64,000 bases of DNA from an uncultured Clostridia bacterium (GTDB lineage: Bacteria; Bacillota; Clostridia; TANB77; CAG-508). Location of the stretch: contig CAKPLT010000009.1 of assembly GCA_934167755.1 (NCBI GenBank), forward strand, positions 369 through 64,368, given 5' to 3'. The notes under the pieces were generated by a model. The model saw only the letters and a program-made list of their open reading frames with translations, ran no database searches and was not told the DNA's origin. This document shows, piece after piece, positions 12,594 to 50,060 of this stretch; positions within the stretch are counted from its first letter, which is position 1; each line of letters opens with the position of its first letter. The position numbers were made by a program, and so were the translations under genes.

Positions 12594-12660
12594 CCAGAGA
12601 AAAATAGTTTCTAAGAAATTAGAATCTATTTTTTTATATAATAGAAAAGTTTTACTTTCC

Positions 12661-12761
12661 TATTATATAAAAGCTACAATTGTTAACCCTTTGAGATTTT
12701 CTCCTTATAGTCGAAAACTCAAATCGGGCAAGAACAAAGGGCAACTATGTTGCTTTGTTCT
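12661..12761 (+). repeat. B-family intergenic repeat, full 101-nt copy
   Basis: 92/101 identical to 60697-60797. Two hairpins: TTTGAG-A-TTTTC/GAAAACTCAAA and GAACAAA..GCAAC/GTTGC..TTTGTTC. Confidence 0.65.
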
Positions 12762-26104: not shown

Positions 26105-26377
26105 TTTATTTCTCTCTTCCTTTCTTAAGTATATGCTGATTTATCAGCTATTAATATTTTATTGTAGTATATCACTTTATGTTTTATTTTTCCATAGATT
26201 AAATAAAATATTCTATAAAAATTATTATGGATTTTGAATAATGGAAATTATATGATTTTTTGGTAATAAATGTTTATCAAATTTTGTCGAAAAATGTGTT
26301 GGAAAAGTAAGCACTTATTGATATAATAAACTTAACTATGTGTTTGTACAAAAATATAAAATTCAAAAGGTTGAGTA

Positions 26378-26644
26378 ATGTCAATTAAAGAAGAAAAACA
26401 AATGAAAATATTAAAAAAAGTAGTTACTATAATAATAATGATAATTTTATGTGGAATTTTATTTGCAAGTGGTGTAATATTAATAAATTCATATATTAGA
26501 CCAAATGAAGTTCCAGCTTTTTTTGGAGGGAAACCATTTATAGTATTATCAGGTTCAATGGAGACACAAATAATGACAGGGGATATTGCAGTTGTAAAAG
26601 ATGTTAATACTAATGAATTACAAGAACAAATTTATTTTCTATAA
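26378..26644 (+). pseudogene. truncated SipW-type signal peptidase I (N-terminal fragment only)
   Basis: TM anchor plus the catalytic Ser box VLSGSMETQIMTGDIAVV, ending at 88 aa. The downstream conserved boxes are absent and are followed by 380 nt of AT-rich non-coding DNA. Confidence 0.55.
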
Positions 26645-27027
26645 TTTCATTTATATTTTGATATTTAGGATTATCTTTTAAAATTAAATTCAAATTGACT
26701 ATAGTCTAAGGCAAAATAATTTTTCCTTAGACAAATTAGTTGATGGGGAGTCAGAAATCTTTAATATATATTGTAACAAAATCTTTTTTTTTGTTTTTCT
26801 AAAATTAATATGTTTGAACTTATCAAATTAAAAAATCTATCTATAACAACACTTCTAACAATTATTATATCAAAAAAAAATAATTAAAGTCTATTAATAA
26901 ATAAAAAAATTTAACAGTTATTGTTACAAGATAATGGTTTATTGTAATACTGTATTTACTGAACAGATATCCACTTTGTGCATAGTTTCAATATTATTGG
27001 AAAAAATATCAAAAAAGGAGGAGAATT

Positions 27028-37213: not shown

Positions 37214-37342
37214 AGTTTTCTCCTTTTTTATCTATTGTTCATATTATAAAATTTATTTTTTTAAAAGTCAAGTTTTTCCAAACATTTTTTTGCGTTTGAA
37301 TACTATTTATTAATTTGGATAAAATATTAAAAAAATAAAATG

Positions 37343-37600
37343 TGGACGGTTCTTTTTTTACTTTTATGTCATGGAATTATAAATATTATAAAATATATTT
37401 TTAAATGAAATGACGAATGTGATTGGAGAAGCTTTAGAAATTCTTAAGCAATTTTATGGAAAGAGTTCACGAGAGTGGAAGGGAGCCATAAAATAAGTTA
37501 GAATTTCTTAAGCTTCGGATTGAGCCGAGGAATGTAATGAAAAAATATATTTTATAACATTTATATAAATTATATTAAAATACAAAAAAGAACTGTTCCA
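37343..37600 (+). repeat. A-family rod-like hairpin element, copy A2 (258 nt)
   Basis: The core 37402-37543 is homologous to A1. It is enclosed by its own ~60-nt imperfect inverted repeat (37343-37401 / 37540-37600), whose sequence differs from the A1 arms. Confidence 0.7.
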
Positions 37601-37622
37601 ATTTTAAACAGGAGAATAATAA

Positions 37623-37970
37623 ATGATAAAAAAAGTAATTTTAGGATTAATAGCTGGAATAATATGTGGACTGTTTGGAACTGGAGGCGGAATGATACTT
37701 GTACCAGCATTTATATATATTTTAAAAATAGAGCCTAAAAAAGCAAGAGCAACATCATTATTTTGTATGTTAGTGATGGTAATGATTAGTAGCATTTTTT
37801 ATTATAGAAATAATTACATAGATTGGAGTACAGGTGGATTATGTGCTATAGGTGGAATTGTTGGAGGATATTTAGGTGCGAAAATTTTGAAAAAAGTACC
37901 AGATTATGTACTTAAAATAGCTTTTACAATTTTTATAGCTTATTATTCTTTTAGAATGTTATTTTTATAA
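37623..37970 (+). CDS. TauE/SafE (DUF81) family half-size membrane protein, N-half
   Basis: 115 aa, ~4 TM helices, GTGGGMILVP motif. Confidence 0.7.
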   Translation: MIKKVILGLIAGIICGLFGTGGGMILVPAFIYILKIEPKKARATSLFCMLVMVMISSIFYYRNNYIDWSTGGLCAIGGIVGGYLGAKILKKVPDYVLKIAFTIFIAYYSFRMLFL

Positions 37971-37990: not shown

Positions 37991-38380
37991 ATGTTACAAA
38001 TATTAATAGGAATTTTTTCAGGAATATTTAGTGGGATTGGAATGGGTGGTGGAACAATATTAATATTTTTGCTTACAACATTTATAGGATTAGAACAACA
38101 TATAGCGCAAGCAACAAATTTAATATATTTTATTCCAACTGCAATTTCAGCAATAATTGTTAATTTTAAAAACAAAAACATAGATAAAAAATTAGCAACA
38201 TTTGTATCTATAGGAGGAGCATTGGGAGCAATTATAGGAGCAAATATTTCTGTTAATATAGATGTACAAAAATTAAGAAAATTATTCGGGATTTTTTTGG
38301 TAACAATTGTTATTCATGAAATATATACATTATTTAAAGAGTATAAATTGAATAAAAAAAGTAATAATAAAAGTAGTTAA
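37991..38380 (+). CDS. TauE/SafE (DUF81) family half-size membrane protein, C-half
   Basis: 129 aa, ~4 TM helices, GMGGGTILI motif, with its own RBS GAGGAG. Confidence 0.7.
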   Translation: MLQILIGIFSGIFSGIGMGGGTILIFLLTTFIGLEQHIAQATNLIYFIPTAISAIIVNFKNKNIDKKLATFVSIGGALGAIIGANISVNIDVQKLRKLFGIFLVTIVIHEIYTLFKEYKLNKKSNNKSS

Positions 38381-49134: not shown

Positions 49135-49161
49135 TACATCTCAGAAATGAGGTGTATTTTT
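49135..49161 (+). terminator. rplS operon terminator
   Basis: TACATCTCA-GAAA-TGAGGTGTA plus TTTTT. Confidence 0.65.
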
Positions 49162-49173
49162 GATATATAATAT

Positions 49174-49288
49174 AAAAAGTAATAATATCATTTTGCCGTT
49201 ACACTTCGGACGCTTCGCTATTTAGAATTTGTTTGTCAAACAAATTCTAAACACCTCGTTTCACTTTAAATTGATATTATTACTTTTT
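49174..49288 (-). repeat. A-family element, short variant A3 (115 nt)
   Basis: A 17-bp outer stem AAAAAGTAATAATATCA / TGATATTATTACTTTTT encloses a core with A-like flanks and the central hairpin TTTAGAATTTGTTTG-TCA-AACAAATTCTAAA. Confidence 0.55.
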
Positions 49289-49369
49289 TGTTGTTATAAA
49301 CATACATCATTATACAGTAATATATGATAATTTATAAAGAGCCTATGTTTAAAGGGGAGGATAATGCAT

Positions 49370-49657
49370 ATGATTAAAAAATTTTTTAAGGCTATAATAA
49401 AGTGTGTACGGGTTGTAATATCAGTAATGAATATCTTTTGGTTGCCATTATTAACCAAAGGAATTTTGGCACTATTGAAAATCCAGGTGTCAAAATACGA
49501 TATGTTGCTGATTATATTGTTAACCATGGTTCTTGGAGGTGCCATATCTCTTCAAATTTATGAAGAAGATAGGGTATTAGAGTATCAAGAAGAACATGAT
49601 TGTTCGTATGAAGAAGCGTGGAAAGAAGTACATCGCGAACCGTACGATTATTATTAA
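49370..49657 (+). CDS. small membrane protein, paralog of 49702..50010
   Basis: ATG 49370 lies 9 nt after GGAGG and gives MIKKFFKA.., identical to the paralog's N-terminus. C-terminal EYQEEHDCSYEEAW. Confidence 0.55.
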   Translation: MIKKFFKAIIKCVRVVISVMNIFWLPLLTKGILALLKIQVSKYDMLLIILLTMVLGGAISLQIYEEDRVLEYQEEHDCSYEEAWKEVHREPYDYY

Positions 49658-49703
49658 AAAGAATAATACACGATTTTCAGTGAAAATCGTGTAGTATCTT
49701 TTT
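49656..49703. terminator. bidirectional terminator shared by the convergent paralogs
   Basis: ACACGATTTT-CAGTG-AAAATCGTGT flanked by an A-run and a T-run. Confidence 0.6.
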
Positions 49704-50010
49704 AACACTCGTCAAAACTATCATCATTGGTTGTTGCCATCCAAGCATCATGAAAAGAACATTTTTGCTTTTCTTGATACTTCAATGCATCAACACAATG
49801 AGAGATGTAAAAATAAATATATGGCCCAATAAAAATTGATAACATAACAATTATTGGTTCTTTGTCCCCAAGATTAATACTTGGGTGTTGAAAAATAACA
49901 AAAACCAATAGTGGGCACCAAAGTATAGCAAAATAACATTTGGCTAAAACTTTTAGTAGTTCCAACTCCCGTAATCCAAGAAACATAGCCTTAAAAAATT
50001 TTTTAATCAT
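49702..50010 (-). CDS. small membrane protein, paralog of 49370..49657
   Basis: MIKKFFKA.. N-terminus, two hydrophobic helices and C-terminal KYQEKQKCSFHDAW. Confidence 0.55.
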   Translation of the reverse strand: MIKKFFKAMFLGLRELELLKVLAKCYFAILWCPLLVFVIFQHPSINLGDKEPIIVMLSIFIGPYIYFYISHCVDALKYQEKQKCSFHDAWMATTNDDSFDEC

Positions 50011-50060
50011 AAGTCATATCCTCCTTTAAACATAGGCTTTATAAATTTTATTATAATTTT

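Follow-up and report, generated by a model that had tools for sequence, protein, structure and literature searches.

Bacterial MITEs classically form long stem-loops, and for one of them, bcr1 of the Bacillus cereus group, compensatory base changes that preserve the fold have been reported (PMC3184786). Together with ERIC, Correia/NEMIS and the QMITEs of Coxiella, bcr1 belongs to a set of small, non-coding elements present in many intergenic copies (PMC3184786; PMC10969869), and these palindromic MITEs have in common terminal inverted repeats, flanking direct repeats and a predicted long, stable stem-loop. The MITE-defining features used here are those of the same two sources (PMC3184786; PMC10969869). 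REP and REPIN elements (RAYT, Y1 HUH) are also dispersed intergenic hairpin palindromes, in which the complementarity of the arms is thought to be important for mobilisation as single-stranded DNA, and REPs tagged with GTAG are known (PMC3733652). Quasipalindrome template switching, in turn, is an established mutational mechanism that copies changes from arm to arm and promotes deletions and inversions (PMC7202029). The repeat described here, the A family, has all of the properties listed above for the palindromic MITEs, but no sequence similarity to any of them, and it appears to be undescribed. Its target duplication is 8 bp, compared with 5 bp for bcr1, and, unlike the palindromic MITEs, it is most conserved in its centre, its ends co-vary perfectly within each copy, and one centre is found within several kinds of arms.

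Two copies of the family, A1 and A2, are located in the window, that is, the whole stretch of 64,000 nucleotides from an uncultured Clostridia bacterium that was analysed (contig CAKPLT010000009.1). Their parts, and one solitary remnant of the family, are as follows.

26923-26937, plus strand: solitary terminal-repeat remnant GTTACAAGATAATGG, in a rearranged intergenic region.
34464-34718, minus strand: A1, a complete 255-bp element of the A1-type subfamily, with at least 8 near-identical copies elsewhere that have identical end bases.
34464-34478, plus strand: A1 terminal inverted repeat GTTACAGGTTAATGG, partner of 34704-34718 (0 and 1 mismatch; 15/16 complementary).
34704-34718, minus strand: second A1 terminal inverted repeat, reading GTTACAGGTTAATGA on the minus strand.
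34456-34463 and 34719-34726: 8-bp direct repeat flanking A1, AAAATATT on the left and AAAACATC on the right, matching at 6/8 positions.
34510-34672, minus strand: conserved core of A1, its limits set by the inner inverted repeat AAATATAAGCTTT / AAAGCTTATATTT.
34580-34603, minus strand: A1 apical module.
37334-37606, plus strand: A2, an imperfect palindrome of 273 nt.
37344-37361, plus strand: outermost arm of A2, GGACGGTTCTTTTTTTAC, pairing with 37581-37599.
37390-37553, plus strand: A2 core, between two copies of the palindromic 12-mer AAAATATATTTT (37390-37401 and 37542-37553).
37460-37483, plus strand: A2 apical module, in which TTCAC (37466-37470) pairs with GTGGA (37475-37479) around the loop GAGA.

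The initial annotation of this DNA had placed two rod-like hairpins at these sites, and both are found, with the stems that it named present in the MFE structures. The extents it gave need adjustment: A2 is slightly longer than 37343-37600, while A1, drawn at 34462-34720, is bounded exactly at 34464 and 34718 by its terminal repeats. The window contains exactly two occurrences of the 24-nt apex AAAGAGTTCACGAGAGTGGAAGGG, which in A1 is read on the minus strand: one lies at 34580-34603 (-), the other at 37460-37483 (+), and the chance expectation is 0. Aligned with one another, A1 and A2 are 83% identical over 291 columns, with a central stretch of ~150 nt that is nearly identical, and each is enclosed, as had been proposed, by a self-complementary pair of arms whose sequence differs between the two. 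The outermost arm of A2 resembles a REP-like unit (TTTTGGACCGGGTACATTTTTTTAC) that forms the terminus of a related copy in another MAG; A2 itself has neither a GTTACA terminus nor a recognisable target duplication. As for coding, a 1-nt indel causes the invariant apex to be read in different frames in A1 and A2, and the element is therefore non-coding, in agreement with the original description. A small ORF in the core (26-28 aa) was rejected on the same ground, and no conserved ORF is found in A-family elements.

Folded as RNA, A2 and A1 reach minimum free energies of -71.4 kcal/mol (z -7.9) and -90.0 kcal/mol (z -14.4), respectively, with 0/200 shuffled sequences as good, and as single-stranded DNA both strands of A2 fold into a rod, at -43.1 and -39.0 kcal/mol, and are thus nearly equal under DNA parameters. 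The consensus fold of 64 aligned copies begins with an outer helix of variable sequence among the copies, which encloses the conserved inner inverted repeat AAATATAARCTTT / AAAGYTTATATTT. The flanking direct repeats (GAATGT) that had been recognised in A1 and A2 are present and lie in a helical stretch, which most copies interrupt by a tandem G.A/A.G mismatch and others close with Watson-Crick pairs. Two more helices, one of 14 pairs and one of 9, lead to a 6x6 internal loop rich in purines (in A2, on both of its sides) and an invariant apical stem-loop. The apex had been read as an open loop of 26 nt; the region is correct, but it is not unstructured, containing a 5-bp stem, TTCAC/GTGGA (alignment pairs 110-114/119-123, invariant), capped by GAGA. 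Only 2-3 apex haplotypes occur among copies collected via the right-arm motif, a sample that is unbiased with respect to the apex. From end to end the palindromes measure 181-531 nt.

The four compensated base pairs named in the initial annotation are real (alignment columns 75-76/157-158 and 95-96/138-139), and across the 64 copies the hairpin is conserved with abundant two-sided changes. Standard pairs fill 97.0% of 3184 cells, compared with 81.5% when partners are shuffled (0/500 shuffles as high), and the further copies therefore do not refute the hairpin through uncompensated stem substitutions, as the initial annotation had allowed that they might. Change on both sides affects 32/50 pairs (437 cells, versus 120 in shuffles), and the covariation score of 0.398 falls to 0.04-0.10 when partners are slid by 1-3 columns. 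The double changes often convert A-T to T-A or C-G, without wobble intermediates. This is the covariation expected of a structured RNA, but it is confounded, because a DNA palindrome yields the same signal.

An exact scan with 20 nt of the apex against one genome per species found it 63 times, at 61 loci spread over 9 species-representative MAGs that carry 1-22 copies each; all of these MAGs are labelled uncultured Clostridia bacterium, and most of the loci derive from Hadza gut samples. Near-exact apex variants in these 61 loci, together with the 2 window copies, bring the total to 68 copies, to which a profile search of the same loci adds 3 copies with variant apices and 2 half-copies. When metagenome contigs were scanned with the right-arm motif, 39 true copies, all in human-gut assemblies, and 3 chance matches were returned. 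Conservation thus extends beyond the strain, to 9 species-level MAGs and to human-gut metagenomes. The element has no BLAST match in plasmids or phages and no exact-scan match in viral contigs. Rfam 15 gives no match at the gathering threshold and, at E up to 10, four chance-level matches of at most 14 bits, in line with the initial annotation, which could match it to no RNA family that it knew. As far as searched, the A family is confined to an AT-rich clade of uncultured human-gut Clostridia. The organism of the window is related to one of the carriers, MAG CAKPDR (about 88% identity across a syntenic 8 kb). The family is an abundant and apparently undescribed repeat, with up to 22 copies per MAG (their one complete relative has a genome of 1.5 Mb), in gut Clostridia that are known only from metagenomes.

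All 68 copies lie outside ORFs of at least 90 aa, in spacers that are tandem in 34 cases, convergent in 13 and divergent in 11. In the tandem setting, 13 copies are co-oriented with the genes and 21 antisense, a bias that is not significant. No protein family or transposase recurs beside the copies, and the ORFs beside half-copies are housekeeping genes. An ORF adjoining one long-type copy (L054 5890-6327), guessed to be Rpn- or transposase-like, has no Pfam match. No conserved promoter or terminator is present in the core, the best promoter candidate scoring 9/12 with the last -10 position not conserved. The copies are also unlike integron attC sites in being solitary, dispersed, in both orientations and between housekeeping genes.

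What the family does display is the ends of a transposon. Copies of the A1-type subfamily (255 bp, GTTACAGGTTAATGG...CCATTAACCTGTAAC) all have identical end bases, as do copies of the long type (461 bp, GTTACAATTCACAG...CTGTGAATTGTAAC), for which ten copies from CAKPDR were aligned, and in both subfamilies the terminal inverted repeats begin GTTACA. Direct repeats of 8 bp flank the elements, matching at 8/8 positions in three copies (L023, L027 and L033) and at 7/8 in three others (L002, L041 and L054); one further copy matches at 7/7 with an offset of one base, and A1 in the window at 6/8, while the background is 2.3 +/- 1.3 of 8. Many short copies are like A2 in that neither a GTTACA terminus nor a target duplication can be recognised in them. 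From what is generally known of IS families, staggered cuts of 8 bp would suggest a transposase of the DDE type. The initial annotation had counted a MITE as a refutation of its reading, and it is the features of a MITE that are found: terminal inverted repeats, 8-bp duplications, fragments (half-copies, apex-deleted copies and solitary ends), deletion alleles, a size of 181-531 bp with no coding capacity, and dispersed copies, with orthologous sites that do and do not carry the element or its centre. A search of 854 kb of related loci plus the window gave no credible candidate for an autonomous IS or longer element with GTTACA-type inverted ends 0.55-5 kb apart.

REP-like units, short and GC-richer than the elements themselves, flank some A-family copies in inverted pairs, and one type of unit contains GTAG. 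HUH single-strand transposition gives no target duplications of the 8-bp type. Unlike REP and REPIN elements, A-family elements are 180-530 bp long, are rich in AT, have inverted repeats over their full length and are flanked by duplications of an 8-bp target, which sets them apart from an origin through REP/REPIN-RAYT or IS200/IS605. The units occur singly, in tandem and as inverted pairs (L013 1970-2060 and 2290-2390; L027 5130-5390; L015 3090-3160; L003 4540-4610), reading TACCAGTRGGGACACYCAT..TGGTAAAA in CAKPDR, where they contain GTAG, and GGGCAATTTGGGGTCGGTTCCGTTTTTGCCC in CAKOYQ, and they often bracket A-family copies.

The arms diverge in a manner that is most easily seen in nine copies of the long type. 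Between copies, the terminal 58 nt are 76-78% identical, a difference of ~24%, while within each copy 48-58 of these 58 nt are Watson-Crick paired (58/58 in L034 and L018), and copy comparisons count 343 cells changed on both sides versus 205 changed on one. The complementarity stops at the target duplication. Identity in the long type declines outward, from 97.5% in the core through 94-95% in the inner arms to 76-78% at the ends, so that the centre is the most and the ends the least conserved part, the reverse of a textbook MITE. The core is found in at least 4 kinds of arms, namely A1-type, long-type, arms made of REP-like units and short AT-rich arms; three sequence types of REP-like unit form inverted pairs as arms, and units also occur alone. 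Because the arms are so varied, and because a second family has GTTACA-like ends, a modular or nested origin of the A family is possible. In this second family, of ~180 nt (L053 4075-4262; L001 640-840; L036 1500-1650), the outer stem is long, the interior is branched and GC-richer, and the ends are similar to terminal repeats of the GTTACA type; it folds at -42 kcal/mol (z -5.6) and has no Rfam match. Growth of the palindrome by inverted copying of flanking DNA, an idea taken from comparisons of L026 with L054 and L012 with L038, had no support and was abandoned: the stretch in question is a REP-like unit, which forms the terminus of the related A2 copy at a different locus and is present in other places too, and L054 may carry no more than a deletion.

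Strain-level variation is present at the two window loci, with contigs whose flanking proteins are exactly identical carrying several alleles. At A2, the short allele lacks exactly 152 nt, corresponding to the core and one of the two AAAATATATTTT 12-mers; within one species, these 152 nt are absent from L063, L066, L067 and L069 and present in L062, L064, L065 and L068, and the deleted allele is itself a palindrome with one copy of the 12-mer. At A1, three alleles are seen, the full element, one in which the central 190 nt are lost at an ATTT microhomology with both terminal repeats kept, and one with an additional loss of 12 nt from the left terminal repeat. The A1 allele series and its asymmetric junction indicate deletions centred on the palindrome and not empty target sites, and the strain alleles observed are all deletions, new insertions not being demonstrable. 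That the 12-bp repeat at A2 is the target duplication of an inserted core was judged less likely than deletion between repeats, given that the arms of the different subfamilies are homologous and that the stepwise A1 deletions are found in these same strains. Metagenome contigs of the species in the window (L067, L069, L070, L062 and L066) begin or end inside A1 or A2, and because contigs break within them, these palindromes can be said to fragment assemblies.

The centre can also be inverted. Between the same two genes, the MAGs CAKPDZ and CAKPHD carry it in one orientation and CAKOYU in the other, with identical arms, flanks 92-98% identical and breakpoints within a perfectly repeated 25 bp. 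Comparison of orthologous sites (about 12) gave 9 pairs in the same orientation and 4 independent flips, and CAKPDZ and CAKOYU differ at 2/5 common sites. Contigs of the species in the window show no flip, with a single orientation at both loci. The elements create strain-level structural variation beside housekeeping genes, and the family, unusual in the way it evolves, amounts to a natural data set on the evolution of long bacterial palindromes, in which concerted arm changes, centre flips and centre deletions are all represented.

We consider it fairly likely that A1 and A2 are copies of a MITE family, in which a long imperfect inverted repeat surrounds an asymmetric centre of 140-165 nt and the two arms evolve in concert at the DNA level. 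The matching stem changes are real, and probably reflect the evolution of a long DNA palindrome rather than a new RNA gene. Here, the elements would be mobilised in trans by a DDE-type transposase making 8-bp staggered cuts, and folding of the palindrome on itself would allow a change in one arm to be transferred to its partner, whether through the correction of mismatches within a hairpin or cruciform or through quasipalindrome-type template switching at replication. A further possibility, acting in place of this or alongside it, is that mobilisation is restricted to elements whose arms pair well. The palindromic structure would also drive the central deletions and flips. A DNA-level cause is favoured because complementarity runs from end to end, orientation relative to genes is random and cores flip in place; in particular, the fact that complementarity ends exactly at the transposon ends argues for concerted evolution of the arms as DNA and not for an RNA gene. 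Quasipalindrome template switching would give the double changes, flips and deletion alleles of the A family, but, as a mutational process, it fails on its own to explain the unconverted asymmetric centre and the internal loops. Since unrestrained homogenisation of the arms would erase the internal loops and the apex, these must be under some constraint. Set against the MITE interpretation are this constraint, the lack of an IS with matching ends in the 854 kb, the lack of a recurrent neighbour gene, the missing GTTACA ends and target duplications of A2 and many short copies, the reversed pattern of conservation, the preference for one strand described below, and strain alleles that are deletions and not demonstrable insertions.

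A possible but unlikely alternative is that the hairpin is a functional RNA carried by a mobile element, acting either in cis within an mRNA, as a 3' stabiliser, a terminator or an RNase III target, or as a small RNA, with selection on RNA pairing producing the covariation, as has been suggested for bcr1 in Bacillus. Covariation well above both the shuffled and the slid controls is what this would predict, as is the alternation in helix 3 between tandem G.A/A.G and Watson-Crick pairs. The architecture is also suggestive, with asymmetric internal loops and apex that are kept, a 5-bp apical stem, a GAGA loop of the GNRA type, a purine-rich internal loop and 2-3 haplotypes, and so is the position of the window copies, as A1 starts 8 nt past a stop codon where there is no other terminator, and A2 is located in a possible 5' leader of a TauE gene. 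When folded as RNA, the strand reading AAAGAG...GGAAGGG is better by ~10 kcal/mol in 62/62 distinct cores, and G-U cells outnumber A-C cells by 182 to 36; this strand preference and G-U excess are as expected for selection on one strand. The excess derives from a few fixed positions, however, and counted as independent events it shrinks to roughly 15 versus 10, so the asymmetry was discarded as a decisive test for RNA.

Several observations do not fit an RNA. Orientation relative to genes is random (the 13 co-oriented and 21 antisense copies), copies are equally present in convergent and divergent spacers, the core contains no conserved promoter or terminator, and Rfam holds no match. Many of the double changes are transversions without wobble intermediates, the centre flips while its flanks are unchanged, and there are strains that lack the core at both window loci. 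Pairing is perfect to the extremities of the transposon, where no transcript boundary is expected. Of the selection on the hairpin proposed in the initial annotation, the conservation of structure holds, whereas covariation as a sign of selection on an RNA is not supported in the form given; single-stranded or cruciform DNA had been listed there as an option. Because the element is a DNA palindrome paired to its last base, covariation alone is not evidence of RNA selection. There is a caution in this for RNA discovery, in that textbook-looking covariation can stem from a mobile DNA palindrome, and where the helix spans the entire transposon, covariation on its own should not be taken as the mark of an RNA gene.

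There is a modest chance that the centre has a function of its own, as a structured RNA or as a protein-bound DNA site, and is carried on several transposon chassis whose arms stay paired through mobilisation or maintenance as a folded single strand. On this view the centre is kept nearly unchanged in each copy, while the neutral parts of the same copies differ by about 20%. Mismatches in the target duplications (5-18%, from few sites) do not tell which part of the element is neutral, and the uniform interior may result from purifying selection on each copy, from gene conversion among copies, or from a young centre in old carriers. If this reading were true, it would imply a transposition that reads structure and tolerates sequence, and yet still leaves 8-bp target duplications; and should selection prove to act on the centre of every copy, a transposon would here have spread a function.

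It is improbable that the centre is a small mobile module of separate origin, brought by insertion or recombination into different palindromic carriers, so that the differing arms would be non-homologous. Such carriers would include other GTTACA-ended MITEs, paired REP-like units and palindromes rich in AT. One core within at least 4 kinds of arms would follow naturally from such a history, the REP-like units are also found solitary, another repeat family combines GTTACA-like ends with a different interior, and the A2-deleted allele is itself palindromic and retains one of the two 12-mers between which the core lies in the full allele. However, the inner arms can be aligned in all subfamilies and diverge gradually with compensation, and there is therefore no sharp module boundary. 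No intact carrier without a core was found, the A1 allele series with its asymmetric ATTT junction indicates deletion and not an empty site, and in other copies the core ends have no flanking direct repeats.

Least probable of all is that the elements are invertons, in which a trans-acting site-specific recombinase flips the 140-nt centre between the AAATATAARCTTT repeats and alters neighbour expression, for although both orientations of the centre are found between identical arms at orthologous sites (including the 2/5 shared by CAKPDZ and CAKOYU), and the inner 13-bp repeat is conserved in most subfamilies while the distal arms vary, the flipping of a short segment bounded by inverted repeats is the sole feature shared with invertons: the core promoter is unconvincing, the neighbourhoods of the copies have no recombinase gene in common, spacers between convergent genes hold copies as often as other sites do, there is no association with gene starts, all contigs of the species in the window have a single orientation at both loci, and terminal repeats with target duplications are features of transposons and not of invertons.

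Other features of the window were noted alongside the A-family copies. A full-length OLE (ornate large extremophilic) RNA is located at 31321-31881 (+), 2.6 kb upstream of A1, scoring 315 bits against a gathering threshold of 50. Downstream of A2, two adjacent genes at 37623-37970 and 37991-38380, encoding 115 and 129 aa, both match TauE/SafE, and may represent either a split gene or a two-piece membrane transporter. The spacer at 26228-26941 is rearranged relative to L061 4543-4879 in CAKPDR: on the window side it holds the solitary GTTACAAGATAATGG and an ORF of 88 aa that matches nothing in Pfam, and in CAKPDR a truncated long-type element. An imperfect palindrome of ~166 nt (49146-49311), unrelated in sequence to the A family, is positioned just past a gene end and may represent another repeat family, the name given to the A family in the initial annotation implying that there are others. 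Close by, an inverted repeat of 85% identity (49321-49395 / 49985-50055) comprises the promoter, RBS and N-terminal regions of two small, convergent paralogous genes, 49364-49657 (+) and 49702-50010 (-), which are separated by a terminator-like palindrome at 49654-49705 and whose 97-aa product has no Pfam match. Further self-complementary stretches occur at 2586-2636 (51 nt, 90%) and 59391-59526 (136 nt, 73%). Finally, a direct repeat of 105 nt is present at 12657-12761 and 60693-60797, 48 kb apart with 92% identity, its second copy ~90 nt from a tRNA gene (60883-60955).
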